62,217 nucleotides of DNA, from assembly GCA_910586295.1 (NCBI GenBank), contig CAJUGE010000090.1, forward strand, positions 1 to 62,217, written 5' to 3'. A program made the position numbers and the translations under genes. Under the pieces are notes generated by a model. It saw nothing but the letters and a program-made list of their open reading frames with translations. It did no database searches and was not told the DNA's origin. Origin of the DNA: an uncultured Bacilli bacterium (GTDB lineage: Bacteria > Bacillota_I > Bacilli_A > RF39 > UBA660). Below, one piece after another: positions 33,354-56,806 of the stretch (position 1 is its first letter; each line of letters opens with the position of its first letter).

Positions 33354-35075
33354 ACACTAAAAAGTTAGAACAGGCTACTGTTCTCTTTTAGTTTATAAAT
33401 AAAACTTCATTATTAAATATTCTCCTAATACTTTCATATGGATTTATATTTCTTTTTATTGATGTCTTTATTATTGATAATGTATTAACAAAATATTCTG
33501 CTGACTTCATACTTCTAAAACCTCCTGATATTTTTGTCTTATTTTTAAATATCCTTAAATCAAGTTCACTTAAATTATCATCAAATGGCACATGAAAGTC
33601 TTCTATAAAGTATAAATGATTTTCCTTGTATTTCTTTAATCGATTGTATAATGATTTTGCCTTTTTCTTATAGTATGATGATTTTATTTGTTTATTTTCT
33701 TCTATAGCTAATTCTAATATTTCATCATATTCTTTTTTATATTCTTCTATTTTTTCATTATCAAACTTTTCTAATTTATACTCTATAGCAATTTTTCTTG
33801 TGTTATTCATTCTAAATATTAAATCATACATTAAAAGTGGCCATTTTATATCTGGTATATTTTCCATTAATTCCATTAAATATCTTCCTAAATGTATGTT
33901 ACATTCATAATTTTTTGTTCCGTAACTATATAATGTTGTATCGTGATCTCCCATTATTCCACCTAAAAACCTTGGAAGTATATTATCTTCTATTACTGGT
34001 TTATGTCCTTTATTTTTATGTGCTTTATATATTACCATATCTTCTGTACTATAGTTTCTTATAAATATATTCTTTCCATTAAACTTTGTTTCAGTTTCAT
34101 CTGTATAACCTTTTGTTCCATTTAAAAATTCTGTTTCTAACACTTCTAAAGTTCTCTCACTTTTCATTCCAAATTCATATAAAAAATTTACTAATGTTCC
34201 ATTTGATATATTTATTACATCATTCGTAATTACTTTAAAGAAGTCATTTAATCTATCATAGGCTATTACATTATAACAGTCTAAATGTATTGCAATACTT
34301 TTTATACTATTTCCATATGTAACATCTGTATAAAACTCTTTGGGTAGTTTGTTATTTGATTTTTTTGAATGTCTAAAAATATGCTTTTCTATAACTGGAG
34401 TTACTTGAAGTTCTATTCTATATTTAATTATATCTTCTTTTTGTTCATCCCCATTAATAGTATGATATACATTAACTACTTTTGCTTTATTTTCATCAAT
34501 TAATTTTTCTATATCTTTTTTACTTAAATTATTTCCTTTATGACCAAATTGTCCACCAATTTTTTGATTGCTTTTAACTCTATAATTATATTGGTTTGCT
34601 CCTGTTTTCTTTTTAGGTGTAGTATAATTAGTTGAAGATGGCTTACTAGAGTTATTACTATTTTTATTATTTTGATTTTTTAGTTTTTCATTTTCTTCAA
34701 TTAACTTTTTATTTTGTTCTTCTAATTTATTAATAGTTTGTTGTAATGATTTAACAGTTGTGTTAAGTTCATATATTGTTAAGTATTGATTTTTATTTTC
34801 TATTATCATCTTATCAAGTTTTTTATTTAAGTCTTCTAGTTGTTTATATAAACCTGTTTCATAGTTTCTCATTCCAGCCATTATTACACCTTCTTTATTG
34901 TTAGCATTTTCTCACATTTTTATAATAAATCAAGTGTTTTGTTTAAACTTTTTTTTAAATTTTATACTTTTTAATAGTTATTCACTTTTTGACCTTATTT
35001 ATTAACATTAAAAAAGTAAGATTTTTAATTTTTTTCTCACTTTCTTACTTTTAAGTCTGAATAGTTACTAATATT
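33327..35075 (-). mobile_element. IS66-family insertion sequence (single-ORF type), about 1.75 kb
   Basis: 24-nt terminal inverted repeats with 23/24 match: aatattggtaactattcagactta (33327-33350) and taagtctgaatagttactaatatt (35052-35075). They flank the transposase gene. No clear target-site duplication was seen. Confidence 0.7.
33388..34881 (-). CDS. IS66-family transposase
   Basis: N-terminal leucine-zipper/coiled coil, GGQFGHKG motif (compare IS66 GGQxGHxG), and the C-terminal block FDDNLSELDLRIFKNKTKISGGFRS (compare the IS66 TNNxAERxxR...K.SGGxRS pattern). Confidence 0.8.
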   Translation of the reverse strand: MAGMRNYETGLYKQLEDLNKKLDKMIIENKNQYLTIYELNTTVKSLQQTINKLEEQNKKLIEENEKLKNQNNKNSNNSSKPSSTNYTTPKKKTGANQYNYRVKSNQKIGGQFGHKGNNLSKKDIEKLIDENKAKVVNVYHTINGDEQKEDIIKYRIELQVTPVIEKHIFRHSKKSNNKLPKEFYTDVTYGNSIKSIAIHLDCYNVIAYDRLNDFFKVITNDVINISNGTLVNFLYEFGMKSERTLEVLETEFLNGTKGYTDETETKFNGKNIFIRNYSTEDMVIYKAHKNKGHKPVIEDNILPRFLGGIMGDHDTTLYSYGTKNYECNIHLGRYLMELMENIPDIKWPLLMYDLIFRMNNTRKIAIEYKLEKFDNEKIEEYKKEYDEILELAIEENKQIKSSYYKKKAKSLYNRLKKYKENHLYFIEDFHVPFDDNLSELDLRIFKNKTKISGGFRSMKSAEYFVNTLSIIKTSIKRNINPYESIRRIFNNEVLFIN

Positions 35076-38670: not shown

Positions 38671-38730
38671 TTACAAAATAATTGCTTATGGTATAATATG
38701 ATACAAAATCAAATTATAAAAGGAGAAAAA

Positions 38731-41037
38731 ATGAAGAATTATAAAACGTTTTATGAGAAGTTTAATTGTTCTAAGTCATTAGTTGACTTAGCAATAAGGC
38801 TTTTATCAGAGAATTATATAAAAATAATATACTTAAAACATAGCGAAAGCCTAATTTCGGAAGAAAGTGTAGATTTAACACCATGTGATCTATCATGCTA
38901 TTACTTAGCATTATCAAAAACTAATGATATTGTAGAATTTCTAGAAGGAGAAAATGTAGATGAAGAAAAAGCAAAAATATTATTAAATGATGGAGAAAAA
39001 CTAGAAGAATTAAAAAAGTTATATAGGGAAAAACATAAAAAAGCAAGAGAATATAAAAGTTTCTTTTCAAACTTTAAAGAACCAGAATATCTAGTTAGAT
39101 TAGCAATTATGATGACACCTGATACTTATAAAGAGACGCTATATAAAAAATATGGACAAAATCTTACTGATACAACTAGCAAATTAGAATTAACTCTAAA
39201 TGACACTAAAAAGATAAGTACTAGATTTATAAATATAATCAAAACAATATTAGAATTTTTAAAATCTAAAAATTTAAGTGAACAAGAAGTGGAATTAATA
39301 TTATCAGATAAGGAAAAACTGAAAGCTTTAATAGAAGAATTTAAATATTCAAAAAAGAAAACAAGAAGAATATTTTCGTTATTTACAGAAAATGAATCAA
39401 TAATTAGACTTTCTTTAACATTTTTAACATATGAACAACAAGAATTTTTAAAATCCATAATAGGAATAGATTATAATGATTATATAACGTTAAAGAGTAA
39501 GAAAGAAGAAAAACAATTAAAAATAACTAAAAGTAGAATTGAAACTATATTAAAATACTTAAAATCATTTGAAATAACTGAGGAAATAGCAGAGAGTTTT
39601 CTAGAAGGAAAAAATTTAAGTGAATATATAAAGCTAAAAATTAATTTTCGTCCTAACATAAGTTTTTATAATTCTTTAGAATATCTAGAAATTGAAGAAA
39701 AATTTTTTTCTATAAATAAAATGCCTATGTTATATAGTGACTTAGCAAGAATTAATATAACACCTAATGATGTATCACTTTTGTTAGAAAATGAAGAAGC
39801 CTTAAAACTTGTAGAAAAAGAATGTGAAAAAATAATAAAGTCTAATTTACCGTTATCAGGACCTTCAAAAAGTTTTTATAGCAAGTTTAACGAAAATAAA
39901 ATATTAGTATTACTTGCTTCAAGATTACTAAAAGAGAAAGAAAAAAATATATTGTACAAAAAGTATGATAAAAACTTAAGCAGCCCACTTCCTAGAAGAT
40001 TAAGTAATAACGAAAAAGGCTATTTATATAATGTGATTATTCCTCATATGAAAAAGATATTAGAATTCTTAAACAATATTAATTTATCTTTAAAACAAGT
40101 GGCATATCTTTTGAGCCCTATTGGTAAAGAAGACTTAGAACTTTTAAAATCCAAATACTATAGTACAAAAAATAGAAAAGCTTCTAGAAAAGCTTCTAAT
40201 AATATATTAATTGGTTTATTAGATATAATTAAAAAAACAGAATATTTAGTAAGACTCGCGATTTTATTCTTACCTGAAGAGTATAGAAATGTAATATTTC
40301 AAAAATATGATAAAGATTTAAATAAAATACCTAACAATAAATTATCTGAGCAAGTTAAAAATAAGATTAGTTATGCCATTGTCTTAATGAAAAGTATAAT
40401 AGAATATCTAGAAAATAAAGATATAACAGAAGAAAACTATTTATATTTAATAAGTGAAGAAGGAAAAGAAGACTTAGAAAAATTAAAGAATGAATACTAC
40501 AAATTAAAAATTTCTAAATCATATATTATGGGAAATTGTAAGCGATACAAAAGTTTTTTCTCTTATTTTAATTGTCCTAAACACATTACAAAATTTGCAG
40601 TTTTATTCTTAGAAGAAAAATATAAGAATTTATTATACAAAAAGTATGATAAAGATTTGGAAAACATAAAACTTAAGGAAGATGTTTCTAATGTAGATAC
40701 TTCTACAATCTATAATTTAGTAATACCTAAAATACAAGAAATAATAGATTTTTTAGATAAGGAAAATATTAGTGATAAACATATTTGTTATTTATGTAGT
40801 GAAAAAGGAACAGAAGATTTGAGAACTTTAATAAAAATGTATAACACTAAGAGAAGAATTAAAAGGTATAAAAAAGTAATTTTTCCTTCTTCAAAAAATT
40901 ATTCGGATGAAGAAAAGATATTAATACTTTTACAAAAATATGAAGGAAACATAAATATAGGAATGCTTAGTGAAATACTTAATATTAATAAAACTGAGGT
41001 ATTTGATACTTTTGTAACATATAAATTAAAACAATGA
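38731..41037 (+). CDS. Repeat protein built from 6-7 tandem modules of about 105-115 aa, each resembling a sigma-70 region-4-type HTH; function unknown
   Basis: Recurring module: YKSFFSNFKEPEYLVRLAIMMTPDTYKETLYKKYGQNL ... ILEFLKSKNLSEQEVELILS..EKLKAL. Module starts fall near aa 15, 119, 224, (321), 391, 503 and 617 of the tracked ORF. ATG 38731 has the SD aaaggaga. Confidence 0.6.
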   Translation: MKNYKTFYEKFNCSKSLVDLAIRLLSENYIKIIYLKHSESLISEESVDLTPCDLSCYYLALSKTNDIVEFLEGENVDEEKAKILLNDGEKLEELKKLYREKHKKAREYKSFFSNFKEPEYLVRLAIMMTPDTYKETLYKKYGQNLTDTTSKLELTLNDTKKISTRFINIIKTILEFLKSKNLSEQEVELILSDKEKLKALIEEFKYSKKKTRRIFSLFTENESIIRLSLTFLTYEQQEFLKSIIGIDYNDYITLKSKKEEKQLKITKSRIETILKYLKSFEITEEIAESFLEGKNLSEYIKLKINFRPNISFYNSLEYLEIEEKFFSINKMPMLYSDLARINITPNDVSLLLENEEALKLVEKECEKIIKSNLPLSGPSKSFYSKFNENKILVLLASRLLKEKEKNILYKKYDKNLSSPLPRRLSNNEKGYLYNVIIPHMKKILEFLNNINLSLKQVAYLLSPIGKEDLELLKSKYYSTKNRKASRKASNNILIGLLDIIKKTEYLVRLAILFLPEEYRNVIFQKYDKDLNKIPNNKLSEQVKNKISYAIVLMKSIIEYLENKDITEENYLYLISEEGKEDLEKLKNEYYKLKISKSYIMGNCKRYKSFFSYFNCPKHITKFAVLFLEEKYKNLLYKKYDKDLENIKLKEDVSNVDTSTIYNLVIPKIQEIIDFLDKENISDKHICYLCSEKGTEDLRTLIKMYNTKRRIKRYKKVIFPSSKNYSDEEKILILLQKYEGNINIGMLSEILNINKTEVFDTFVTYKLKQ

Positions 41038-42450: not shown

Positions 42451-43701
42451 TTGAGTAAAATTACTGATGTTTTAGCAAGAGAAATACTTGATTCAAGGGG
42501 AAATCCAACAGTAGAAGTAAGCGTATTTACTGAAAAAGGTAATGTTGGAACGTTTGGTGTTCCAAGTGGAGCTTCAACTGGAAAGAGAGAAGCTTTGGAA
42601 CTTAGAGATAATGATTCTAGATATTTTGGTAAAGGTGTTCTTACTGCAGTTAATAATGTTAATAATATAATAAAGAAAAGTATAATAGGTTTGGAAGTAC
42701 AAAATCAAAAAACTATAGATAATATAATAATTGAATTAGATGGTACACACAACAAAAGCAAATTAGGAGCGAATGCTATGCTAGGAGTAAGTGTAGCATG
42801 TCTAAAGGCGGCAGCAAAGGATGCAGGTGTTCCAATATATAGATATTTAAATAAAAGAGATGTTAAAATTCCGTTTTGTATGTTTAATATATTAAATGGT
42901 GGAAAACATGCTAGTAATAATGTAGATATTCAAGAATTTATGATAGTGCCAAAATTTGATACTTTTAAGGATTCTTTAAGAGCAGCTAGTGAAGTGTTTC
43001 ATAGTCTTAAAGGAATACTTCAAGATAAAGCACTTTCAACTTCACTAGGTGATGAAGGCGGATTTGCGCCAGACTTAAATAGTAATGAAGAAGCATTAAG
43101 TTTAATAGTGAAATCAATAGAGACTGCAGGATATATACCAGGAAAAAATATATTTATAGCATTAGATGTAGCTGCAAGTTCTTTTTACAATAAACAGAAT
43201 GATATGTATAGAATGGATAATACAAATATGTCTAGAGAAGATTTACTAGAATACTACATTAATATTGTAAAAAGATTTCCTATTATATCAATAGAAGATC
43301 CTTATGATGAAGATGACATTGAAGGATTTAGGATGATTACTGAAGCTTTAGGTAAAAAAATAAGCATAGTAGGGGATGACTTATTTGTTACTAATAAAGA
43401 AATCCTTGAAAAAGGAATCAAAGAAGGATTATGTAATGCTATAATAATAAAGCCTAATCAAGTTGGAACTTTCTATGAAACGCTTGAAACTATAGTATCT
43501 GCAAAACAAAATAAATATACAGCAGTAGTAAGTCATAGAAGTGGTGAGACAACAGATACATTTATTTCGGATTTAGCTGTAGCATTAAATATACCGTTCA
43601 TGAAAAGTGGGAGTGTATCTCGTGGTGAAAGAATAGCAAAATACAATAGACTACTAGAAATAGAAGAAGAACTTAGTGATGACTTAGAAGAAGATATGTA
43701 A
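42451..43701 (+). CDS. eno: Enolase
   Basis: ILDSRGNPTVEV, SLGDEGGFAP, IKPNQVGT and SHRSGETTD signatures. TTG start with the SD gaggtga. Confidence 0.93.
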   Translation: MSKITDVLAREILDSRGNPTVEVSVFTEKGNVGTFGVPSGASTGKREALELRDNDSRYFGKGVLTAVNNVNNIIKKSIIGLEVQNQKTIDNIIIELDGTHNKSKLGANAMLGVSVACLKAAAKDAGVPIYRYLNKRDVKIPFCMFNILNGGKHASNNVDIQEFMIVPKFDTFKDSLRAASEVFHSLKGILQDKALSTSLGDEGGFAPDLNSNEEALSLIVKSIETAGYIPGKNIFIALDVAASSFYNKQNDMYRMDNTNMSREDLLEYYINIVKRFPIISIEDPYDEDDIEGFRMITEALGKKISIVGDDLFVTNKEILEKGIKEGLCNAIIIKPNQVGTFYETLETIVSAKQNKYTAVVSHRSGETTDTFISDLAVALNIPFMKSGSVSRGERIAKYNRLLEIEEELSDDLEEDM

Positions 43702-43840: not shown

Positions 43841-45502
43841 ATGTTAGAAGAAAGAGAACTGCAAACAAAAATTTTGATGGTAACAAAAACTTTAGAGTAT
43901 ATTGAAGAACTGGGATTTAATTTAGAAAAAGAGAAAAGTAAACTAGATAAGATATTAAATGGTACATTTAGTGAAAATGGTAAGATATATAAGTTCAGTA
44001 GTTTAAAAAAGACAATAGAGTTAGAAAAACTTTTAAAAGACTTAAAAAGGTTTGATGAATATTTTAAATTGCTAAATGAATTAGAGTTTATAAAAAGAGC
44101 GCTTACACAAGAAAAATTATCTGATAAATATATATTTAATATAATAGAATTTATAAAAAGACTAAGGACTTGTAGAGTTATCTTAGACGATACTCAAAAG
44201 GAAAAGTTGCATGAAATATATATAACTTTATACAATATTATTTTAGTAGAGATACTTAATAGTGAAGATTTTGACAGTAAAATATTAAGGCAAATGACAG
44301 AAGATAAGTTTGATGAGTATATGCTTAATGAAATTATTTTGGAAGAGATAAAAAGACTAGAAGATTATTCCTATTTAGAAATATCAAGTTATAATTTATT
44401 AAGAGATAATATATTATTCCTAAAATCTCAAGGAGTAAAGAATTTTGCTAGATTAGAAATTATGTCCAAACTTTTAGCGTGTATACATCCAGAAAAGGTC
44501 CGAGAAAGATTAAACGGTGATTTATCTGCATTATACGAGTCTATCAGTACTAACAATCAAAATATAAATATGAAGCTTACTTTACTAGATACGATATTAG
44601 AAAAATATAACTACATTAAGTCTAATATATCTAAGGAAAAGATGAACAAGACACTCTTATCGTTTTTACTTACATTTTCTATAAGTTTAGGTATAGGTGG
44701 TATGGGAGCAAAGGTAGCTAGTGACTTATCAAAACAAAAATTATATAAAACAGAAACTACAATATATAACAGCTTTACTGACTCAGTAACAACCACAGAA
44801 TCTTGGCAAACTGAACTTGAAAGAACATTCACTAGAAATAGGGTAGATTATTCTACACCGTATTGGAGCAAAACTAGAAAGAGTTATGTATTAAATATAG
44901 AAACATTTGACTTTACTGACCGTTATAGAGGAGAATCATATGAAGAATGTTTAAATAAATCATATATATCTAGTTTAAGTATAAATGATGAATATAAAGA
45001 AATATCTGAAGAAGAAGCACTAACTATTTTAGAAAATATTTCAACCGATTACTTGGTTTGGGCAAAAGAAATAGTTGACACAACACAAGACAAAAGTGAA
45101 TATATAGAAGAAATAAATAAAAATACACTTGTAACATTGTTAGCAGATTTATATGCGCTTTTGATTTTGGCTCTTTGGGTATTAGATAAAAAATATAAAG
45201 CAGGATTATATAGTAAAATTAAAGAGATGATAGAAGTAATAAAAACTTCTAAACTTACAAAGAAAGATTACAAATTTCTTTCTTTAGAATATGAAAAAGT
45301 ATTTAAAGAATATGAAGATTACATAAAAAATAATCAAGAATTAAATGAAATATACCAAAATACTAAAAGAGAAATGCTTAATACTCTGGGTGAAAGTTAT
45401 AAAGATGAGCAAGCTTTGGTGGATTTAATAGAAAAACTAGAAAGTAAACTTGATGAAATAAAACCAGAAGATATAAATTATACTAGAAAATTAGGAAGGT
45501 GA
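43841..45502 (+). CDS. Array paralog 1: two-TM hairpin membrane protein, unknown family
   Basis: Helical N-domain of about 270 aa. TM1 TLLSFLLTFSISLGIGGMGAKVA (about aa 271-293). Exposed domain of about 135 aa. TM2 LVTLLADLYALLILALWVL (about aa 430-448). Coiled-coil tail. Basic residues flank the cytoplasmic sides. Confidence 0.7.
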   Translation: MLEERELQTKILMVTKTLEYIEELGFNLEKEKSKLDKILNGTFSENGKIYKFSSLKKTIELEKLLKDLKRFDEYFKLLNELEFIKRALTQEKLSDKYIFNIIEFIKRLRTCRVILDDTQKEKLHEIYITLYNIILVEILNSEDFDSKILRQMTEDKFDEYMLNEIILEEIKRLEDYSYLEISSYNLLRDNILFLKSQGVKNFARLEIMSKLLACIHPEKVRERLNGDLSALYESISTNNQNINMKLTLLDTILEKYNYIKSNISKEKMNKTLLSFLLTFSISLGIGGMGAKVASDLSKQKLYKTETTIYNSFTDSVTTTESWQTELERTFTRNRVDYSTPYWSKTRKSYVLNIETFDFTDRYRGESYEECLNKSYISSLSINDEYKEISEEEALTILENISTDYLVWAKEIVDTTQDKSEYIEEINKNTLVTLLADLYALLILALWVLDKKYKAGLYSKIKEMIEVIKTSKLTKKDYKFLSLEYEKVFKEYEDYIKNNQELNEIYQNTKREMLNTLGESYKDEQALVDLIEKLESKLDEIKPEDINYTRKLGR

Positions 45503-45506
45503 ACTT

Positions 45507-47189
45507 ATGCAATTTGAAATGCCAATATTTAAAGGAATAAAAAGAAAGAAAAAAGAAGGATTTATTAGTGAATTATCAGACGAACTAGTAAACGTAGAAA
45601 TAATGATAAGTAATATAGAGAATAGTGAAATCTCTATAGATATAGAACAAGAGAAATTAGAATTAGATGAGCTAAGACAAGAAATTGATGCTAATTACAT
45701 TACTAGTGAAAAAGTAGGTACTTCTATAATAGGTGTTTATCAATCTATGACTGATAAATTAATGAATATAAAATCAAGAATAATAAAATATGAAAGTTTG
45801 ATATTATTAATGAATAAGGCTTATTACTTAGAAAATGCATGTAAAAGTGGAGAAGTTGCGAAAGATTTTAATTCATTTGTTTCACTATGTTTAGAGATAC
45901 TTACAGATTTGGATAAAATAAAAGTAAGTATTGTATCAAAATATAAAGATTCATACGAGAAAATATATAGAATAATTTATGAATTTATAAAAATAGAAAT
46001 ATCTCATACTTTAGAAAGTAAAGTTTTAGAAAGTTTAGTGAGTCAAAAAACAGCTGTTTATTATATTAATAATATAATGAGAGATGAAATAAACAATATA
46101 AAAGAGCGTACATTCAATAACCCTAAATTAATAAGTAGACTTGATATGCTTACAAATAAGAATACTTCTTCTAGCTTAGCAAGCGATATTGTTAGCAAAG
46201 ATGTCATATTTACGATAGTACTAATTACAAATGAAGAAGAAGTAATGAAATCATTAAACAGTAAAATGGATGGTATCAGAGTGCAATATAGTGAAAATTT
46301 AGAAGAGATTAATTCCTATTTATATTCTAATTCTGGTTCTGATGATCCTGTTGGTAAGATTGTACAAAGTAAAATAGATTTAGAACATCATAGGCAACAA
46401 TTAAAAGAAACAAATAAAGAATTAAAGAAAAAACTTATAGCACTTATTATTTCAACTACACTAGTAACAGCCATAGGTCTAAACTTGCCTTCTATAGGTA
46501 AACATTTTAATACTAAATATGTAACAACTACTGAAATTTATGAAACAGGAAAAGAGCCTATTTCATTATCTTCGTATGAAGAGAAAGCTAGTGATATAAA
46601 GAGAACATTAGATATTTATAGTGAAACGTATGAAGATTGGGGAAAAACTTATACAGACTATAAAAAATATGATGTTACAGATGTAATTATAGAAAGTGTG
46701 AGTGAAGAAGATTATCTATATATAGATGTTGATTCCTTTGGTTTAAAATCTTATGACTCAAGGCAAGAAAATGTTACAGAAGAATCAAAAGAAGTAAGAC
46801 AACTTACAGTAGTAAAACAAGACCATGTAAACGGGAGTATTTTAGATGAAGATGATTATAGAACTTTTCTTATAATTGCCTATTTAGTTCTTGCTTTTGA
46901 ATCAATATGGGAAACAATTGGCCCATTAAATAACTTTATAAAGTGTATAAAATTAATTAATGATGGTGATTCAAGAGCTACATTTGTAAATATATTTTAT
47001 GAAGAGTTAAGAAAACTAATTAAAGAGTGTGAAAAATATATAAAATCTAACAAAGATTTAGAAGCGGAATACTACAGTATTTATGATGAATTAAAGTACT
47101 TAACTACAGAAGAAATTGAAGATAAGTTAAAATCTTTAACTGTACAAAACAGTGAATATAAAAAAACTTTAAAGGCTTATAAGGAGTAG
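45507..47189 (+). CDS. Array paralog 2 (same family)
   Basis: 4-nt gap from paralog 1. KKKLIALIISTTLVTAIGL (TM1), KYVTTTEIYE, DYLYIDVDS, LTVVKQD, FLIIAYLVLAFESIWETIGPL (TM2). Confidence 0.7.
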   Translation: MQFEMPIFKGIKRKKKEGFISELSDELVNVEIMISNIENSEISIDIEQEKLELDELRQEIDANYITSEKVGTSIIGVYQSMTDKLMNIKSRIIKYESLILLMNKAYYLENACKSGEVAKDFNSFVSLCLEILTDLDKIKVSIVSKYKDSYEKIYRIIYEFIKIEISHTLESKVLESLVSQKTAVYYINNIMRDEINNIKERTFNNPKLISRLDMLTNKNTSSSLASDIVSKDVIFTIVLITNEEEVMKSLNSKMDGIRVQYSENLEEINSYLYSNSGSDDPVGKIVQSKIDLEHHRQQLKETNKELKKKLIALIISTTLVTAIGLNLPSIGKHFNTKYVTTTEIYETGKEPISLSSYEEKASDIKRTLDIYSETYEDWGKTYTDYKKYDVTDVIIESVSEEDYLYIDVDSFGLKSYDSRQENVTEESKEVRQLTVVKQDHVNGSILDEDDYRTFLIIAYLVLAFESIWETIGPLNNFIKCIKLINDGDSRATFVNIFYEELRKLIKECEKYIKSNKDLEAEYYSIYDELKYLTTEEIEDKLKSLTVQNSEYKKTLKAYKE

Positions 47190-47192
47190 AAT

Positions 47193-48689
47193 ATGTTTTT
47201 CAGAAAATTAACTGAATTTGGACAAAGAACGTCAAAGCTTAATGAAGTTAATAATTTACTAGACTATTTAAGTAGTCTAGGTTTTGACATGATAGAAAAA
47301 AGAAAAGAATTAAATAAGATATCTCCTTATAAACTAAACGAATTTATAGAGAGTTTAAACATAGAATATCTTGGAGTAATCGTTTCATCTAATTATTTAC
47401 ACAAAATGAATAATATCTCATCTGACTTTAGATTTGAATATAAGTTACAATATTTTGTAACTGTTTCAAAAGAATTTCTAGAAAAAATAGACTTAACAAA
47501 TTTAGAATTAAATGATAAATGTGAAGAATACATAAACAGTGCTATTAAACTTTTATATGTTGTTATAAAATCAGAAATATTCTATACTTTTAAAAGCGAA
47601 ATATTAGAACTAGTAAAAACAAATAATAAAATATCTAACATTATATCTTCGTTTATAGAAAAGGAAGTAGAAGAATTGTTTAGAAGTTCATTTGTTAGTA
47701 ATATGCTTGCATTAAAGAAACTGGAAGAACTAATTAACAATAAAGATTATCTTGACTTAGAAGTTCTTATTAACCTTTACATGTGTACTAATCCAGAAGA
47801 AATAAACCATGGTATGAAAGAAGATCTTAAAAGAAAAGAAACGGAGTTACTAACTAGGTTGGATAGTATTACAAGTGAATTAAGTAGAAGCATTATAATC
47901 AAAAATAATCAAGAAGAACTAGCGCATCTTGCATACAAAATAAGATGTCTTGTAAGAGAAAAGCAAGATAAAGTATCACATATAGTATTAAGTTCTTTAT
48001 TATTATTAGGTTCTTGTTATATTGTACCTAAGGCAGCTACACCTTTATCTACGGAGTACTTAATTAATGAGTCTATATATACAGTTGATGAAAATGGAAA
48101 TGAAGTATTGGTTAATGAACAATCTTACTATGATAAAATACTAAGGGGAGATAAAGTTACATTGAGAGTTTATGACAAAACAGAAAACCATATAGATTAT
48201 AGAGTTACAGAAGTATATGAAGATGTAAAGGTGTTAATAGAAGAAGAACTAAAGTCAAGAAATGTTATAGACTCTGGAGAGTATAAAGAAGTGGTATTTA
48301 AAGACATAGACACAGGTGATACTAGAATTGATGAATCATCTAAATTAAGTATATGTATACAAGGATATATTTTATCTTTATTATTTCCTGGTGGAGGCTT
48401 AATTTACAATATAGCAGAATACCTCAAATGCAAAGAAGGAATAAACTATCAAAAAAGAAGACAAGAAGATTCTATTAATTTGATTGAAAAAACAGTTGAT
48501 GAACTATTAGATAGACTTAGCGAGAACAAAGAAATAGAAAATAAATTTTATCAAATTCTAGATAGCTTGAATTTACCAATTGATAAAGAAAATTTTATAA
48601 GTGAAATCGAAGCGTTAATAGAAAGAAGAAAAAATATTGAAGCTAAATTAAATGAAGAAGTATATTTAGCAAAAGTATATAGAAAGTAG
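47193..48689 (+). CDS. Array paralog 3 (same family, shortest)
   Basis: 3-nt gap. LLDYLSSLGFDM N-motif. TM1 IVLSSLLLLGSCYIV. TM2 LSICIQGYILSLLFPGGGLIYNIA. Confidence 0.7.
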   Translation: MFFRKLTEFGQRTSKLNEVNNLLDYLSSLGFDMIEKRKELNKISPYKLNEFIESLNIEYLGVIVSSNYLHKMNNISSDFRFEYKLQYFVTVSKEFLEKIDLTNLELNDKCEEYINSAIKLLYVVIKSEIFYTFKSEILELVKTNNKISNIISSFIEKEVEELFRSSFVSNMLALKKLEELINNKDYLDLEVLINLYMCTNPEEINHGMKEDLKRKETELLTRLDSITSELSRSIIIKNNQEELAHLAYKIRCLVREKQDKVSHIVLSSLLLLGSCYIVPKAATPLSTEYLINESIYTVDENGNEVLVNEQSYYDKILRGDKVTLRVYDKTENHIDYRVTEVYEDVKVLIEEELKSRNVIDSGEYKEVVFKDIDTGDTRIDESSKLSICIQGYILSLLFPGGGLIYNIAEYLKCKEGINYQKRRQEDSINLIEKTVDELLDRLSENKEIENKFYQILDSLNLPIDKENFISEIEALIERRKNIEAKLNEEVYLAKVYRK

Positions 48690-48697
48690 TGATATAA

Positions 48698-50362
48698 ATG
48701 ACTAATGAAAGTCTAAATTTAGAAAGTAAAATACTAAAATTAGAAGGAATAATGGATGAGTTAGAAAGTATAGGTATTAATACTGCAGATAAGCGCGCTA
48801 CTCTTAATAGTACCATAAATAAGAAAGTAATTCTTGGAAATACTGCTTATGAAGAAATGTCTGAAGCTAATAAGTTACAGCTTTTAGAAAAAGTTACATC
48901 AGAGTTATTAGAATATAGTGATTTACTTAATATTTCTAGAATTATAAACTTTTTGACACTTGCTTCAGATGAATCTGCAGAAGAAAAAGTAGAAGAAACG
49001 ATGAAACTTATTAATTTATTAAGAGTTAATAGAGAAAAACTATCTACAAATCATAAATTATTAAGAAGAGTTTATAGTTCTATTTATGATGTCATAAAAA
49101 TGGAATATACTCTATATTTAAGAAGTGATATATTAGAAACTATTCTAGATAGTAAAGAAGATGTAGTAAATATAGAAGCTTTAGTAGAAAAAGATATAAT
49201 AGATTTAAAGAAGAATACATTTGTTGAAAGTAAAGAAGCTCTTGATTTACTATTAACAGAAGAAGCAAGAATCAAATTAAAAGAAATTAATCCGTCTTTA
49301 GTAACTGAAAAAATAATACTATTGCTTGTAATATGTACCAATAAAGAAAGAATGAGTGAGAACTTTAAAATGGAATTAGAATTCATTCTAAGAAGATTAT
49401 CGACTAACAGTAAAGCTATATCTAATAATACATTCTATGACCAAAAGTTTAGATTAACAAAGAGACTTTTAAATATTAAAAAAATTAGAGAAGACTATAA
49501 AAAGAAATTAATAGCTTTAGTTCTAAGTTTTAGCTTATTTACTGGAGTTTCTCTAACTTCTAACCTACTTATAAAAAGATTATGCACTAAAGAACTATTT
49601 AATACAACTAAAGAAACAATAGAATTAATAAACGGAGAATATTATAGAAATACTGATAACTATTATGGTACTAAAGTAAGTGAAGATGAAAAGATTGTTT
49701 TAAGATTGTATAATCAGTTATATACAAATACTAGAAACTTCACTGAATACGATTTAAAAAATGCTATTAAAGATACAGCAGAAAACTATTTGAATATTGA
49801 TTTAAATAGTGGTGGGGTTAGTGAAAAATTTGTTTTGAATGATGTTAAGAATTATGAAGATGATGAATTTTACTTAGAATTTTCTGAAGGCTATAGAGAA
49901 TTAACATTAATAGAACAAGACTTAAACGACGGTTATACAGACTACAATGAAAAGTTCCATTATATATCTCTTGCAATAATATATCTCGTATTACTTATAA
50001 GTGCATTTACGCCTATAGGACCCATTAAAAAGTTAAGAGAGATATTGGAGTTAAAGAAAGATTACAAAAGTAACATTAAAGACAGAGATAAAACTATAAA
50101 AATTATAGAAGAATATATTGATTCTTGCAAGCTTAAAGTAGAAGAAAATAAGTTACTAAAAGAAAAGATTAGAATAATGATTTCTAGTGGAATATTAGAA
50201 CTTGAAGAAGAAACACTTAAAGGAAATATAAAAAGATTATTAGATGAATTGGAACAAGGAACTGTAAAAAATTTAGATGAATTTCTAAGAGCAGTAGTGT
50301 CTAGAGAACATAGTTCACTAACAAATGAAGAAAATTATAAGAAGCTAAAAATAAAGGAGTAA
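48698..50362 (+). CDS. Array paralog 4 (same family)
   Basis: 8-nt gap. KKKLIALVLSFSLFTGVSL (TM1), NYLNIDLNSGG, LTLIEQD, ISLAIIYLVLLISAFTPIGPI (TM2). Confidence 0.7.
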   Translation: MTNESLNLESKILKLEGIMDELESIGINTADKRATLNSTINKKVILGNTAYEEMSEANKLQLLEKVTSELLEYSDLLNISRIINFLTLASDESAEEKVEETMKLINLLRVNREKLSTNHKLLRRVYSSIYDVIKMEYTLYLRSDILETILDSKEDVVNIEALVEKDIIDLKKNTFVESKEALDLLLTEEARIKLKEINPSLVTEKIILLLVICTNKERMSENFKMELEFILRRLSTNSKAISNNTFYDQKFRLTKRLLNIKKIREDYKKKLIALVLSFSLFTGVSLTSNLLIKRLCTKELFNTTKETIELINGEYYRNTDNYYGTKVSEDEKIVLRLYNQLYTNTRNFTEYDLKNAIKDTAENYLNIDLNSGGVSEKFVLNDVKNYEDDEFYLEFSEGYRELTLIEQDLNDGYTDYNEKFHYISLAIIYLVLLISAFTPIGPIKKLREILELKKDYKSNIKDRDKTIKIIEEYIDSCKLKVEENKLLKEKIRIMISSGILELEEETLKGNIKRLLDELEQGTVKNLDEFLRAVVSREHSSLTNEENYKKLKIKE

Positions 50363-50365
50363 GCT

Positions 50366-51961
50366 ATGCAGGAATATATGAATAGAGAAATGCAAGATGA
50401 AAGAGTAAATAAATTAATGGAATTTATGAGTATCTTAGAATCTACTGGAATTAATTTATCTGAACAAAGAGAATATTTAACTACTATATTAAACAGATGT
50501 AATGTTAATAGTAATACAAAAGAAGCATTAGAAATATTTGCTTATGAATTAGGAACTTTAACGGAAAATTTATCTTCTTATAAAAATTTAGTAAAGATTA
50601 TCAAAATGATAGAAGAACTAAAAGAACTGAATTACTCAGAAGAAAAAGAGGAACAGGTTCAAAGACTAATAGAACTATTAGAAGAATATAGAAGTAGTGT
50701 AGAAGTAGAATATCCTAAAAATATTATAGAGAGTGCTTTAAAATGTATATTAGATGAAATTAAAGAAGAAATAAAAAATCATTTAGATAGTAAGACATTT
50801 GATGTTGTTTCTAAAGATGAATTTTATACTAAATACTTTAATGAACTTATAAAAGAAGAAATAGAAGAACTAAAATCATTGTCATTCTTATGCTACCCTA
50901 AAATGTTGGAAACTTTGCAAGAGGAAATGAATAGATGTAAAAATCAATTATTTGATAAAAGACTAATAACTTCTCTAATCGCTTGCCAAGAAAAAGAAGA
51001 ATTAATGAATGCTACAAAACCTTATTGTCGTTCTAAAAGATATACACTAGATGCAAATAATTATAGGATAAAGTCATTAAGTGATAATGATAGTCTATAT
51101 GCTACGTTTGAATCTTTAAAAAAATATAAAGAATTAATATTTAAAGCTAAAAAACGAGTACCATCTTTATTATTAACTGGTATTTTACTTTCTGGTATTT
51201 CTTTAGGAGTACCACAATTTGCAAAAAAATTCAGTATAAAATCTTCATATAAAACAACTACAGAGAAATATAGTTTAGACTCAGATGTTCATAATGAAAG
51301 CCCCTTAGAAAGTTTTGAAGAGTTACTAAATGAGAATGGACTTCAAGTAACTATGACTGTACAAGGTGAATTAACAAAAATAAATCATAATCATTATCAT
51401 AGAACAGAAACAGTATATGATGTAACATCTAAGGGTGTAGAAGAACCTTATTATTATCTTTATTTAGATTTAGAAAATAATTCTGAAATAACTAAGATAT
51501 CTGAAACCACTTTAGAATGTACTGATGAAGAGTATACTGATGAAATAAGAAATCTTACAATTATTAAGCAAGATTTGGAAAATAAAGAAGACTATACTGA
51601 CGAAGAATTATATAAAGAACTTTGTAGTTTATCTTATATAACAATACTAGCATCTTCTTTAATTCCAGGTTTTCCAATATTTAATTTAATTAGTATAACG
51701 CTAGATTTAATAGAAGCACATCGAAACAAAGAGCATTTTAAAAAATATTTAAACTTACTTAGTGAAGAATTAGAAGAGTGTCATAAGAAAATCTTAGAAA
51801 ATGAAGAAATTAGAGATTATTATAACTTTTTATTAAATAGTGGTATAATGAATAAAAGAGATGATATAGTAGAAATGCTATTGAGCGAATTAGTTTATTA
51901 TCAGAAAAAGATGGAATCTAGAGAAAAAGAAGCATTAGAGTTAAAGAAAATAAAAATGTAA
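50366..51961 (+). CDS. Array paralog 5 (same family)
   Basis: 3-nt gap. TM1 SLLLTGILLSGISLGV, YKTTTEKY, YYLYLDLENNS, LTIIKQD, TM2 ITILASSLIPGFPIFNLISI. Confidence 0.7.
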   Translation: MQEYMNREMQDERVNKLMEFMSILESTGINLSEQREYLTTILNRCNVNSNTKEALEIFAYELGTLTENLSSYKNLVKIIKMIEELKELNYSEEKEEQVQRLIELLEEYRSSVEVEYPKNIIESALKCILDEIKEEIKNHLDSKTFDVVSKDEFYTKYFNELIKEEIEELKSLSFLCYPKMLETLQEEMNRCKNQLFDKRLITSLIACQEKEELMNATKPYCRSKRYTLDANNYRIKSLSDNDSLYATFESLKKYKELIFKAKKRVPSLLLTGILLSGISLGVPQFAKKFSIKSSYKTTTEKYSLDSDVHNESPLESFEELLNENGLQVTMTVQGELTKINHNHYHRTETVYDVTSKGVEEPYYYLYLDLENNSEITKISETTLECTDEEYTDEIRNLTIIKQDLENKEDYTDEELYKELCSLSYITILASSLIPGFPIFNLISITLDLIEAHRNKEHFKKYLNLLSEELEECHKKILENEEIRDYYNFLLNSGIMNKRDDIVEMLLSELVYYQKKMESREKEALELKKIKM

Positions 51962-51972
51962 GTGGAGGATTT

Positions 51973-53589
51973 ATGGAAGGACAAGTATTAAATAGCTTAG
52001 AAGCTTTAATAAAGGAAGAAACACCTTTAAGACTATATGAAGCTAAAAAGATGGAAATAGATAATTTATTAAAAGAAATAAAATATAATGGATATGATGT
52101 ATCAGACTTAGAGAATGAATATCATAGTATAGATATTTCAAATGATATAACTATAGATAGGATTTTGTGTAAGTTAAAGGTTATAAGAATGTATTCACAT
52201 AAAATAGTGGTACTAAAATATATTGCTACTTCTTTAGAAAGTGATACCTATGATTTAATAGATTTAAAACATAGATACTTTGAAGCGTTGTCTTATATGA
52301 GAAACAGTGAATTATTTATTACTCAAAGAGAAGAAAGTACAAGGCATTTACTATATGAAGTGGGGTATAAGCTAATAGAAAAGGAAATAATACACACAAG
52401 TAGAAGCGACATATTAAATGAAATATTAACTAATGATTATGATACTATGAATCTAAATCTTATAATTATAGATATTTTAGAAAAAATAAATGGAATAACT
52501 TATGCAAATCCAAAAAGTTTAAAATCACTTATTGATTTAATATCAAGAAAAAAGGAACAAGAAGACTTCAAGAGTTATGTTGACATAGACATAATAACAG
52601 GTATAATTATTGTTACCAATTCTCAAGAATTATTAATTAACCTTGAACCATCTACTAAAGATGCACTTAATAATCTCGAAAGAAATGTGAATAGTTTACA
52701 GTTTTATCAGGGCTTTTATAACACAGCGGGATTTGTAAAACGCGAAAATGAAAAACGTGTAAAATACATAAAGAAAATTAAAGTGAAAACTGTATCTGGA
52801 CTTCTTGCACTAGGCCTTTTATTTGGTTTATATAATTTTTGGCTGTCTAAAAGTATAGAAAAAGATTCAATGCTCTATAATGTTGAGACAACAGTATATG
52901 AAGATTCTTTAGAACCTGTGACTACATATGAAGTTGGTAGGCATGAAAAAGATACATTAGTTTTAGAAGTGTATAAAAATGAAGTGAATGATAAAGGACA
53001 AACTGTTAGATATAAATATACATATGATGAAAAGAAATTAAAGAATATTAATATAGATGAGCTTGATTATCAAACTATTGATTTAACAGGAATAAAAGAA
53101 AGTAAAAAGGAGGTTTATGAAGAAAACCCTACAGAAACAGAAGAAAAAGTAATATTTAGGATAATAACTGCAGATAAAGAAGAAGTTTTGAGTATAGATG
53201 AAGATTATAAACAAATGAGAATTATTTCTCTTTGGGCTACATGGATATTACTCTCTTTTATACCTAATGGATTTGGTAATTCCATAATTTGCATAATAAT
53301 AAACTTAATAAAATATTTAAAATCAAACAAACCTTTTAAAGCGCTAAAAGAACAAGTAGATAAAGAATTAGTAGAAATAACTACCGCAATATCAAAAAGT
53401 GAATCAGCCTTAGAAGAATATGACAGATTACTTAAATTATTTGAAATGTTAAGCGAGGTAGAAGAAGTAGACAATCAAGAATTATTAGATTACTATAAAA
53501 AAGAATTAAATAAATATAAAGAAGAATTATCTTATAACATCAAAGGAGTAGAAGGACATAAAAAGGAATTAAAGTTAGGTGGTGCTTAA
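51973..53589 (+). CDS. Array paralog 6 (same family)
   Basis: 11-nt gap. TM1 [39 protein letters not shown]2 region [28 protein letters not shown]. Confidence 0.7.
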
Positions 53590-53591
53590 GA

Positions 53592-54638
53592 ATGGAAGAA
53601 AAATATAATTTAGATTATTATGACTATGATTTACCAGAAGAACTAATTGCGCAGACACCATTAAAAAATAGAAGCAGTTCAAAATTATTAGTTTTAAATA
53701 AAAATACTGGTGAATTAAAAGATGATACATTTGAAAATATTACTTCTTATTTAAAGAGTGGAGATGTTCTTGTACTTAATGATACAAAAGTTATACCTGC
53801 AAGATTGATTGGTACAAAAGAAACTACAAATGCTACAATAGAGTTGTTACTTCTTAAGAATGTAGAGAACGACACTTGGGAATGTTTAGCAAAGCCGGCT
53901 AAAAGACTTCATGAAAATACTATTATTTCATTTGGTAATGGTGAATTGAAAGCTAAAGTTATAAAGAAAAAAGAAGAAGGATTAGTAGAAGTAGAACTTC
54001 TTTATGATGGAATACTATATGAAGTATTAGATAATCTTGGTTCTATGCCACTTCCACCTTATATTCATGAATGCTTAGAAGACAAAGATAGGTATCAGAC
54101 AGTATATGCAAAAAATCTTGGAAGTGCTGCCGCACCTACTGCTGGGCTTCATTTTACAGATGATTTGTTAAATAAACTAAAAGAAAATGGAATAACTATA
54201 ACTTATGTAACATTACATGTAGGATTAGGCACTTTTAGACCAGTAAATACTGATAATATACTTAACCATGATATGCATAGTGAGACTTATATGATGAGTG
54301 AATATACAGCAGACATTCTAAATAAAGCAAAAGAAGAAAACAGAAGAATAATCGCAGTAGGAACAACTAGCACAAGAACATTAGAAAGTATAATAACTAA
54401 ACATGGTAAATTCACTGAATGTATGGAAGACACTAACATATTTATATATCCAGGATATAAATTTAAAGCAGTATCTGCTCTTATTACTAATTTTCACTTA
54501 CCAAAAAGTACACTGGTCATGTTAGTAAGTGCGCTTTCTACTAGAGATTACATACTAAATGCATATAATCATGCAATAAAGAATAAATATAGATTTTTCT
54601 CATTTGGAGATGCTATGTTTATAACAGACGAATTATAG
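53592..54638 (+). CDS. queA: S-adenosylmethionine:tRNA ribosyltransferase-isomerase
   Basis: [37 protein letters not shown] and VGTTSTR are QueA signatures. Confidence 0.92.
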
Positions 54639-54647
54639 GAGAAAAAT

Positions 54648-56276
54648 ATGAATAAAGCAGAATTAGAGATAAAAAATATGTTAAGAGAATTAAAAAAGAT
54701 TGGAATAGATACACTAGAATATGAACAAGAATTAGAAAGTTTAATAAGTTTAAACACAAACTCTAATCATCTTTCTGAGCAAGCAATGCTAAAAACTGGC
54801 AAGACACTTAGAATTACAGAGTTAAATGCAAAAATAAGTGTATATTCATCTTATTTAGAACTTTATAAAATATTAGAATACTTAGAAAAAGGAGAACCTA
54901 CTTTAGAAGAAAGAATAGAATTGTGCATGCATATATTGCTTGTAATAGGAAGCAAAGATGAAAAAATAATGTCTTCTAATCAATTACTAAAACGTGCATA
55001 CACTTTAATCTTTGATACCATAAAACAAGAATTAAAAGAAACATTATATAGTAAAATATTTGATATAGTAGTGACTAGTGATTACGATAAATTATATTTG
55101 GGAGAAATAGTAAGAGAAGAAATAGAAAGGATAAAAGAAAGTACATTTGTAATTAATTTAGACTACTTAGATTCTCTTATTAAAGAAGAAATAAAATCTA
55201 ATATGTCTTCTCCTAGTAATTATGTAACACTTTCTTTAATAACTAAAATTGTGAAATGTGAGAGTGGTGACGAATTAAAAGAAACTATTGATAGAACACT
55301 ACAAGATACTTTCCCAAAGTTAATTGATAGAAATGCTATGCTTAATGAATCTTTAAATGGGGATGTTATTAAAAGGAAGTTTCTAGACACTATAAGTGAG
55401 CTTTTAGATGATATAGAAAATTATAAAATAGATATTATAGGAAGAATCATATCTGGAGTTTTAACTACATCTTTAATTTTTGGTGTTGGTATAGGTGGAA
55501 CAAGACAATTGAAAAAATGGTTGACAAAAGAATACTATGAAACAACAAAAGTGACAACAGTGATGGATGAAACTATACACGAACCTAGAGTTGATACATA
55601 CTATGACACACTAGTAGAAGAAAAAGATAGATTATTATTAGAAGTGGATGAGAAAGCTTTGCTTAAAGGTACACTAGACGAGCCATATAGAAGATTATAT
55701 AGTATCTATTATTTAAAAGATGTTATAAAGGAAACAGACCTTGAATATTTGACTATAGATTTAGAAAGTCCAGGAATTGTACTTAAAAGGAAATACTATA
55801 CAAGAGAAGAGGCAAATGAATACTCTGGAGAAATAAAAAAACTATATAGGATAACTCAAGGTGAAACCCCAGAATATAGTGAATATTCTAAAGGATGGCA
55901 TAGATTCTTATGTACAGTATTATATGTAGCATTATTTGCTTCTAGTTTTATACCATACTTTCCTATAAATGACATAATAAAAATACTAGATGATTTAAAA
56001 AAATCTGAAGAAAAAGAAGATCTTTATAATAGTCTTGGCTCAGAACTTAAAGACCTTTTAAATGAATGTATGAGAGTTATTAATAAAAGTGATGAATTAA
56101 TAAGTATTTATAATAAAGTACTTGAGAGTGGAGTACTAGAAAAAGATACAGATGATTTAACCCAAGACATTAATAACTTAATCTTCCAAATCAAAGCAAA
56201 AGAAGAGATGATTTACAAAAGCCAAACAGAGTTAAGTGAGTTGGAAGCACATTTTTTAAGATTGAATAAAGACTAA
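54648..56276 (+). CDS. Array paralog 7 (same family), downstream of queA
   Basis: 9-nt gap after queA. MLRELKKIGIDTLEYEQELES N-motif. TM1 IISGVLTTSLIFGVGIGG, YYETTKVTTV, LEYLTIDLESPG, TM2 LCTVLYVALFASSFIPYFPI. Confidence 0.7.
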   Translation: MNKAELEIKNMLRELKKIGIDTLEYEQELESLISLNTNSNHLSEQAMLKTGKTLRITELNAKISVYSSYLELYKILEYLEKGEPTLEERIELCMHILLVIGSKDEKIMSSNQLLKRAYTLIFDTIKQELKETLYSKIFDIVVTSDYDKLYLGEIVREEIERIKESTFVINLDYLDSLIKEEIKSNMSSPSNYVTLSLITKIVKCESGDELKETIDRTLQDTFPKLIDRNAMLNESLNGDVIKRKFLDTISELLDDIENYKIDIIGRIISGVLTTSLIFGVGIGGTRQLKKWLTKEYYETTKVTTVMDETIHEPRVDTYYDTLVEEKDRLLLEVDEKALLKGTLDEPYRRLYSIYYLKDVIKETDLEYLTIDLESPGIVLKRKYYTREEANEYSGEIKKLYRITQGETPEYSEYSKGWHRFLCTVLYVALFASSFIPYFPINDIIKILDDLKKSEEKEDLYNSLGSELKDLLNECMRVINKSDELISIYNKVLESGVLEKDTDDLTQDINNLIFQIKAKEEMIYKSQTELSELEAHFLRLNKD

Positions 56277-56309
56277 AAATATGTGTTATGATCCGACTTA
56301 TTGGAGAAA

Positions 56310-56429
56310 ATGTTAGTGAAATGTAGAAATAGAATAATATTAGCTTTAACTGGTACATTATTACTTTGTGGATGTGGTTCAGTAGTTGAAGGACAAGAAA
56401 AAAGAGAAAGAAACTATAAAAGTATTTGA
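56310..56429 (+). CDS. Possible 39-aa lipoprotein (not in the ORF track)
   Basis: SD ggag 4 nt before the ATG. MLVKCRNRIILALTGTLLLCGCGS has a signal peptide and a lipobox-like LLLCG. A hairpin and T-run follow. Confidence 0.3.
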   Translation: MLVKCRNRIILALTGTLLLCGCGSVVEGQEKRERNYKSI

Positions 56430-56489
56430 AAAAGGGAAACATATAAAAAAGCCTCGCCAATATTGACGGGGTTTTAACATGACTAAAAA

Positions 56490-56699
56490 TTATTCTTTAG
56501 CAGTTTTCTCAAAAGGCATTAATAGTAAACCTATATTTATAATACCAGCAAGGCCTACAAAAGTATAAACAACTTTAGTAAATAAAGTATCTACACCAAA
56601 AATAGCTTCAACTATATTAAAGTTAAATAAACCTACAAGTCCCCAGTTTAAAGCTCCTATAATAGTTAAACCTAGTGCTATCTTTTGTACTGTTTGCAT
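56490..56699 (-). CDS. DUF378-family small membrane protein
   Basis: IALGLTIIGALNWGLVGLFNFNIVEAIFG is the typical DUF378 signature. Confidence 0.7.
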   Translation of the reverse strand: MQTVQKIALGLTIIGALNWGLVGLFNFNIVEAIFGVDTLFTKVVYTFVGLAGIINIGLLLMPFEKTAKE

Positions 56700-56806
56700 A
56701 TATACCTCCTCCCAGTTATTATTAGTTTAATCTTTTTTGACCATTTTATTCATAAAGTAATTAAACTCTAATATAATTAAGTGTAAATAATTAAAGGAGG
56801 GTTATT

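Follow-up and report, generated by a model that had tools for sequence, protein, structure and literature searches.

The locus described here raises two questions, namely what kind of protein is encoded by a tandem array of seven divergent, putatively membrane-anchored paralogs, and whether a Pro/Gly motif in their second transmembrane segment (TM2) has a functional role. The array occupies positions 43841-56276 of the forward strand of contig CAJUGE010000090.1, from an uncultured Bacilli bacterium, of which positions 1 to 62,217 were analysed (hereafter, the window). It comprises seven open reading frames (ORFs) of 498-560 aa, with queA lying between the sixth and the seventh. An earlier note, based on the nucleotide sequence (hereafter, the original prediction), had ascribed to all seven proteins a shared hairpin topology with both termini in the cytoplasm (N-in/C-in), a conserved exposed domain and, in TM2, a Pro/Gly motif that would act as a signalling or gating element. 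We find that the protein family and its folds are new within Pfam, NCBIfam, PADLOC, the PDB and BFVD as searched. The predicted topology is supported by several lines of evidence; the strongest conservation of the family lies in the cytoplasmic part of the proteins, and the TM2 motif is confined to one clade.

A family of two-segment membrane proteins with a predicted outer beta domain

Searches for known relatives with the seven paralogs (Pfam-A and NCBIfam) and with 84 family members (Pfam) yielded nothing above cut-off and no match that recurred among the 84 members, but only scattered coiled-coil noise. Known anti-phage defence systems and phage families were likewise rejected, since the seven paralogs had no match in PADLOC and only two isolated weak matches, by different paralogs, in PHROGs (E = 1.5e-4 and 2.5e-3); tblastn against phage and plasmid collections returned nothing. 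Comparison with PDB sequence profiles, using both full-length and loop-only queries, gave E values of 0.015 or higher, to designed helical bundles and unrelated proteins. Word-indexed homologue searches recovered close orthologues only, none of them named, a profile of 84 sequences added nothing to these, and none of the public cluster members that were sampled carries a name.

The family itself is sizeable. A hidden Markov model (HMM) search of 1.84 billion cluster representatives identified 418 proteins at E <= 1e-3, of which 282 also pass E <= 1e-10. Almost all are 480-585 aa long and match over their full length, with no domain fusion among the best 150 matches. The paralogs of the window are 18-21% identical to paralog 1 and approximately 20% identical to one another, and the wider-family HMM recognises all seven, with scores of 185-313 bits.

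In paralog 1 (43841-45502, forward strand, 553 aa; family HMM 300.9 bits), the ORF list, hydropathy and flank charges place the first transmembrane segment (TM1) at aa 271-290 (44651-44710), the exposed domain at 44711-45121 and TM2 at aa 428-448 (45122-45184), in agreement with the coordinates originally assigned to the two segments. The same layout is common to all seven proteins, as had been proposed: each presents exactly two Kyte-Doolittle peaks above 1.5 (19-residue window) at matching positions, about aa 260-310 and 385-455, and nothing comparable elsewhere. Two such peaks were also found in 124 of the 131 full-length family representatives, and in 105 of 139 at the strict threshold of 1.5.

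Four independent lines of evidence, namely charge bias, an N-terminus devoid of a signal segment, depletion of cysteine in the loop and acidity of the loop, support the prediction that the proteins are N-in/C-in, with both large helical domains in the cytoplasm and the middle domain outside, as the original prediction had it. In the 15-residue flanks of the seven paralogs, Lys and Arg number 38 before TM1 and 31 after TM2, compared to 22 and 14 on the loop side, and the summed net charge over the seven is +38 inside and -13 outside. The Lys/Arg clusters formerly read by the positive-inside rule thus hold for the paralogs taken together, with the exception of paralog 7, which shows almost no charge bias. 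Family-wide the bias is weaker and runs in the same direction (1013 Lys/Arg inside versus 736 outside, with the inside exceeding the outside in 85 of 124 members).

The N-terminal 260-310 aa or so are charged and helical and contain no hydrophobic signal segment, which would make TM1 a signal-anchor and place the loop outside. Net charge ranges from -5 to -18 in the loops of the seven paralogs, and 99% of family members have a loop that is acidic on balance. Cysteine makes up 0.37% of loop residues, as opposed to 0.90% of the N-terminal and 0.63% of the C-terminal domain, in line with the established avoidance of cysteine in the proteins that Firmicutes export.

Structural models were obtained for paralog 4 with AlphaFold2, using an alignment of 143 family sequences for the full-length protein (predicted local distance difference test [pLDDT] 90.8, predicted template modelling score [pTM] 0.69) and modelling the loop alone (pLDDT 92.2, pTM 0.83). 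The full-length model is composed of helices over residues 3-241, a long helix at 245-296 that contains TM1, strands over 297-416, the TM2 helix at 418-436, a break at 437-441 and two further helices at 442-496 and 505-553. The C-terminal tail, formerly described as a coiled coil, is accordingly a two-helix hairpin in the model. The middle domain is beta-rich in both the full-length and the loop-only models, as had been surmised. It is acidic and rich in Tyr and Thr, and measures 105-137 aa rather than the 120-150 aa given at first. Its junctions with the membrane are modelled without linkers: the helix at 245-296 passes into strand 297-311, and strand 399-416 into the TM2 helix, so that the first and last strands of the outer domain, of 15 and 18 residues, are both long and next to the membrane. 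Foldseek searches of the PDB returned a best E value of 0.47 with the full model as query and of 0.69 with the loop domain, with template modelling scores (TM-scores) of 0.32 or below and no fold relative for the exposed domain; against BFVD, the full model matched only long helical phage proteins, with TM-scores of about 0.2 or below.

The exposed domain is not hypervariable, since it is the best-conserved large domain between orthologues: identity between the window and the sister-species locus L001 is 50-63% in this domain, compared to 39-55% in the N-terminal and 41-52% in the C-terminal domain. Within the species, variation of paralog 4 is uniformly low. Per-column scoring further places all four of the exposed-domain motifs that had been singled out on family-conserved columns (paralog-4 numbering, used hereafter), including Y301 (85%), Y308 (81%), Y338 (70%), R346 (73%), Y351 (89%), D352 (68%), Y364 (82%), D368 (56%), E401 (59%) and D408 (53%).

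Conserved cytoplasmic residues and the Pro/Gly motif of TM2

The strongest conservation of the family is found on the cytoplasmic side, in a Y-x3-Y-x2-IK-x-E-x6-S motif. Within it, E136 (99% of members) and S143 (96%) are the sole near-invariant residues of the family, and Y126, Y130, I133 and K134 are present in 80-90% of members. In the model, the residues from Y126 to E136 line up as a stripe on one cytoplasmic helix, with S143 at the start of the next (144-149); this stripe is probably a shared interaction site or a buried structural core. Analysis with hhalign revealed neither an internal repeat in the N-terminal domain nor any resemblance of this domain to the C-terminal one. In TM1, which is rich in small residues, two Gly positions four residues apart, G283 and G287, are kept at 56-60%, and suggest helix-helix packing in oligomers.

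TM2, by comparison, is the least conserved segment of the family, with a mean top-residue frequency of 0.27. The Pro/Gly motif that was thought to be conserved at its end can indeed be aligned in six of the seven paralogs (P-x-[GF]-[PF]-I and variants), and most of the L001 orthologues retain it, but paralog 1 and about 80% of family representatives lack it. The residue at the main motif column is Pro in 24% of family sequences, and no more than 23 of the 124 representatives contain a Pro anywhere close to where TM2 ends. The supposition that the motif is embedded in the membrane likewise stands in part. It does coincide with the predicted helix break at 437-441, a new helix starting from P442, but this break lies at the cytoplasmic end of TM2 and not in mid-membrane. 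In paralogs 5 and 6, the motif is followed by 7-10 more hydrophobic residues.

TM2 of paralog 1 is also dimorphic: strains whose copies of this paralog otherwise agree at 95% identity or more carry one or the other of two strongly divergent alleles. The window carries the allele ...NKNTLVTLLADLYALLILALWVL..., and most strains carry ...DRNKLIKLLLGLYVFLGGVLYGL...; between positions 45100 and 45199 the two differ by 27 mismatches in 100 nt, with identical flanks. No source sequence for this patch was found in the window or in L087, L088 or L001. A second strain-divergent patch is seen against L087, a locus of the same species, in the N-terminal region of paralog 6 (approximately 52130-52200), where 29 of 115 aligned columns differ, counting gaps of 6 and 9 nt.

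With a motif that is confined to one clade and lacking in paralog 1, and a TM2 that is dimorphic, a signalling or gating role for the motif finds no support across the family. As far as the model indicates, the motif would break the helix, or form a hinge, where TM2 meets the first C-terminal helix; this would be a feature of one clade and not the functional core of the family.

These observations bear directly on the possibility, closest to the original prediction, that the proteins oligomerise into a two-TM channel, or a gated pore, akin to MscL or P2X, in which the TM2 hinge would serve as the gate. The two-TM, N-in/C-in layout, the helical bundle at the C-terminus, the break at the motif and the composition of TM1 (12% Gly, among many small residues) are all in keeping with such a pore. 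The segment that would have to act as the gate, however, is the one that the family conserves least and that varies between strains in paralog 1, the motif itself is absent from most members, no polar or charged membrane position is conserved, and no channel fold was matched. MscL shares with these proteins the N-in/C-in hairpin and the C-terminal cytoplasmic helical region, but it is a protein of approximately 136 aa with a short loop, and shows neither sequence nor fold similarity to them. Weakened above all by the lack of conservation in TM2, the channel proposal appears to us to be quite improbable.

Arrays of variable size and the predicted mode of action

Tandem arrays of family members lie among core genes at every locus examined. 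One locus (L083/L089) contains nine copies interleaved with parE, the genes for dUTPase and a peptidase S51, and ileS; another (L084) has at least two copies beside RNase J, pgk and spo0A, and a third (L085) has four beside RNase J. With a GC content of 24-27% at these loci, the family appears to be restricted to very low-GC genomes of uncultured gut Bacilli. A scan of GTDB representative genomes with paralog 4 produced no match, the family profile offers no conserved stretch suited to such a scan, and none of the 80 loci obtained by scanning these genomes for threonyl-tRNA synthetase (ThrRS) harbors a family member within 10 kb of thrS.

In the sister species, locus L001 presents one-to-one orthologues of the window paralogs in the same order and maintains the embedding of queA, and no such orthology exists in distant genomes. 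Copy number nevertheless differs markedly between the two species: the window has seven members, whereas those of the sister species number at least 16. Six of these lie upstream of queA, in L001, and ten lie downstream of it, in L090; the downstream stretch (L090 604-15293 and L001 8589-14273) has its counterpart in a region of the window (54648-56807) with paralog 7 only. In two independent assemblies (L001 1092-2613 and L002 2-1406), the paralog 3 orthologue is broken into two ORFs, of 342 and 179 aa; a frameshift or a pseudogene may account for this.

Orthologue identity is 43-56% for the paralogs, in comparison with 84% for the QueA encoded in the same array, and the paralogs evolve approximately three to four times faster than QueA, with nonsynonymous divergence (dN) of 0.33-0.51 versus 0.12. 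The proportion of nonsynonymous differences is below that of synonymous differences (pN < pS) in every full-length comparison, although synonymous divergence (dS) has reached saturation; purifying selection appears to act on the coding sequences. Together with the placement of the arrays among core genes (eno, queA, thrS, parE, ileS), this apparent selection points to a constitutive cell-envelope function.

We tentatively propose, as a real possibility that still falls short of an even chance, that these proteins are oligomerising transmembrane couplers with a clade-specific hinge after TM2. Each would consist of a helical cytoplasmic N-terminal domain of approximately 260-310 aa bearing E136 and S143, TM1 as a signal-anchor with its conserved Gly positions, the beta domain described above (105-137 aa, acidic and rich in Tyr and Thr), which would sit on the outside of the membrane and under the cell wall, and TM2, followed in the cytoplasm by 85-110 aa folded as a two-helix hairpin. 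The protein would thereby link an extracytoplasmic event or partner to a bipartite helical module in the cytoplasm, which would bind a shared partner through the Y-x3-Y-x2-IK-x-E-x6-S face, and the array would constitute an expandable repertoire of such couplers. The proposal is made because, in the model, no linker separates the outer beta domain from either membrane helix; junctions of this kind would favor conformational or mechanical coupling across the membrane.

Several observations weigh against the coupler proposal. No partner, ligand or output domain has been identified, and the apparent co-transcription of all members is not typical of sensors. The topology is drawn from sequence statistics and a model, and oligomerisation would follow only from the TM1 Gly positions, where a GxxxG pattern is present in just 55 of 124 representatives. 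The near-invariant E136 and S143 may be purely structural. Moreover, the outer domain may be dispensable, because two of the extra copies in L090 (approximately 371 and 410 aa) have a truncated outer domain, with TM segments only 30-47 residues apart.

A bolder form of the same idea, which we regard as rather unlikely, is that the family is a novel membrane-spanning module, peculiar to uncultured low-GC gut Bacilli, in which a new outer beta fold would be coupled rigidly, via the two membrane helices, to a new bipartite helical domain in the cytoplasm. Its tandem paralogs would combine in different ways to build a signalling lattice or a structure of the envelope. If true, such a structure or lattice would have no counterpart in studied bacteria. 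In either case, approximately 11 kb of a probably small genome are spent on seven copies of one type of protein, the confident models delineate a candidate new domain on each side of the membrane, and experimental work could start from the near-invariant E136 and S143, the Gly positions of TM1 and the clade-specific hinge.

Arrays of this kind recall the mycobacterial mce operons, in which six tandem MCE paralogs yield one heterohexamer. Both systems comprise tandem, highly divergent membrane-anchored paralogs that combine a beta domain with long helices and that are co-transcribed, in the present case very probably so. By analogy, the seven paralogs could be subunits of one fixed hetero-oligomeric machine spanning the envelope, their outer beta domains associating laterally in a ring or barrel. 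The tight packing of the genes, the preservation of gene order and one-to-one orthology in the sister species, the long membrane-adjacent first and last strands of the outer domain and the conserved Gly positions of TM1 are consistent with such a machine. A fixed composition is difficult to reconcile with copy numbers of seven here, at least 16 in the sister species, and nine, four and at least two elsewhere, with the split paralog 3 orthologue, and with the loss of one-to-one orthology in distant genomes; variable copy number fits an expandable repertoire better. MCE proteins, furthermore, possess a single N-terminal TM segment instead of two, no MlaD Pfam match was obtained, and no YrbE-type permease or ATPase genes are adjacent to the array. 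We thus consider a fixed machine of this type unlikely.

The rapid divergence of the paralogs relative to QueA, the expansion and contraction of the arrays, the association of the host lineage with the gut and the patchy divergence between strains could instead mean that the array supplies variable surface proteins, for instance adhesins, antigens or phage-receptor decoys, whose exposed domain would diversify under pressure from hosts or phages. This explanation has little to recommend it where the outer domain is concerned, which is the most conserved large domain of the protein and not the most variable. Roughly two thirds of each protein are predicted to be cytoplasmic, and it is there that conservation is strongest; no repeats or switching sequences were found, and the genes lie in one probable operon. 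In addition, since the genome encodes FemAB, a membrane-proximal domain of 125 aa would probably be covered by a peptidoglycan wall. Conservation of the outer domain in particular makes a variable surface repertoire very doubtful.

Tandem, divergent and fast-evolving paralogs in variable copy number are also what would be expected of membrane-anchored immunity or defence proteins, comparable to the tandem orphan immunity genes found beside toxin loci. The absence of PADLOC matches and of phage or plasmid relatives speaks against this origin, as do the neighboring genes (eno, queA, thrS, parE, ileS, RNase J and pgk), among which no toxin, secretion-system or mobile-element genes occur nearby, and a length of approximately 550 aa with a large conserved cytoplasmic domain is atypical for immunity proteins. 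It is this housekeeping context that chiefly undermines the immunity explanation, to which we assign only a slight probability.

With regard to known membrane proteins, the closest architecture to the one predicted here is that of the polysaccharide co-polymerases (PCPs; Wzz, Wzc, CpsC), with two TM segments, an N-in/C-in topology and a big outer domain. In PCPs, which form oligomers, TM1 and TM2 flank a single large outer domain, and TM2 is associated with Pro and Gly motifs, a Pro-rich segment on its periplasmic side and a Gly-rich segment within it (PMC7809406). The outer domain of PCPs, however, is an elongated alpha-helical coiled coil, in contrast with the beta domain of both AlphaFold2 models; the motif analyzed here is placed at the opposite, cytoplasmic end of TM2 and is confined to approximately 19-24% of the family, and the N-terminal tail of PCPs is short, compared to an N-terminal domain of approximately 270 aa. 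Neither the seven paralogs nor the 84 family members had a Wzz Pfam match, Foldseek matches to Wzc chains had E values of 2.7 or higher, and the loci examined all have housekeeping neighbors, with no polysaccharide synthesis genes such as those of the Wzx/Wzy type, and no bacterial tyrosine kinase (BY-kinase). Membership in the PCPs therefore fails on the coiled-coil outer domain, the periplasmic Pro segment and the want of a large N-terminal domain in PCPs, and on the lack of polysaccharide genes here.

Methyl-accepting chemoreceptors and sensor histidine kinases resemble the coupler proposal in that their outer domain is rigidly continuous with two TM segments, their cytoplasmic part is helical and they occur as many paralogs. 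They begin with a mere N-terminal stub, whereas the proteins studied here have a large N-terminal domain and all copies are in one probable operon. No match to HAMP, MCP-signalling, HisKA or HATPase domains was found in Pfam or NCBIfam, and the outer domain matches no known sensor fold. Like the MCE operons and the MscL-type channels, these receptors thus have no more than individual features in common with the family.

Organization of the array and its surroundings

The genes of the array, all on the forward strand, are separated by 2-11 nt and each is preceded by a Shine-Dalgarno-like motif. Judging from this spacing, the array is very probably one transcript starting after the enolase gene (42451-43701). 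Following paralog 1, which is devoid of the Pro/Gly motif, paralog 2 (45507-47189, 560 aa; family HMM 313.1 bits) has TM1 at 46434-46499, its exposed domain at 46500-46862 and TM2 at 46863-46928, with the motif WETIGPLNN at 46908-46934. Paralog 3 (47193-48689, 498 aa; 185.0 bits) has the shortest exposed domain, of 105 aa (48030-48344), between TM1 at 47973-48029 and TM2 at 48345-48416, and its motif is LLFPGGGLI (48378-48404).

The modelled protein, paralog 4 (48698-50362, 554 aa), is 55% identical to its L001 orthologue. TM1 is located at 49508-49573, the exposed domain at 49574-49954 and TM2 at 49955-50026; column conservation places the cytoplasmic E/S motif at 49085-49126 and SAFTPIGPI at 50000-50026. 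In paralog 5 (50366-51961, 531 aa; 296.0 bits; L001 orthologue 43% identical), TM1 lies at 51158-51223, the exposed domain at 51224-51619 and TM2 at 51620-51703, with SLIPGFPIF at 51656-51682. The corresponding segments of paralog 6 (51973-53589, 538 aa; 227.1 bits; L001 orthologue 51% identical) are at 52789-52848, 52849-53220 and 53221-53310, with SFIPNGFGN at 53254-53280.

The queA gene (53592-54638, forward strand), encoding S-adenosylmethionine:tRNA ribosyltransferase-isomerase, is separated by 2 nt from paralog 6 and by 9 nt from paralog 7; its orthologues in L001, L087 and L090 carry the Pfam domain Queuosine_synth. Paralog 7 (54648-56276, 542 aa; 307.5 bits; L001 orthologue 52% identical) completes the array, with TM1 at 55446-55502, the exposed domain at 55503-55904, TM2 at 55905-55970 and the motif SFIPYFPIN at 55944-55970.

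Genes for PolC, PolA, FemAB and enolase lie upstream of the array, and a GerS-like lipoprotein gene and thrS lie downstream; the ORFs that follow thrS we take, from their position, to be probably infC, rpmI and rplT. The window has a GC content of 27%, and its ThrRS is 75-78% identical to those of metagenome-assembled genomes of uncultured gut 'Bacilli bacterium' from goat, rabbit and mouse, a range that also covers Candidatus Coprovivens excrementavium (NCBI: Bacilli incertae sedis). Promoter and terminator scans were uninformative in this AT-rich DNA, with 95 promoter-like sites found and 97.6 expected. Rfam families were not detected anywhere in the 62-kb window at the default gathering thresholds; a T-box leader upstream of thrS (57997-58179, forward strand) reached 50.9 bits (E = 5e-10), short of the Rfam gathering score of 93.

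Between paralog 7 and the GerS-like lipoprotein gene (56316-56700), two small ORFs can be read by eye, a possible lipoprotein on the forward strand (...LLLCGCGS...) and a small hydrophobic protein on the reverse strand, with a terminator-like hairpin at 56455-56468. Upstream of the array, a 779-aa ORF with no Pfam match (38698-41037, forward strand) contains, by eye, about six repeats of approximately 115 aa (KSFFS-F-x-PEYLVRLAI...YK..LYKKY...); the genes matching it in strain L087 encode 154 and 438 aa. Further upstream, a gene for an IS66-family transposase (33388-34881, reverse strand) separates a VanZ-like gene from a 227-aa ORF, and the insertion is probably recent, because the gene calls for L087, a locus of the same species, do not include this transposase.

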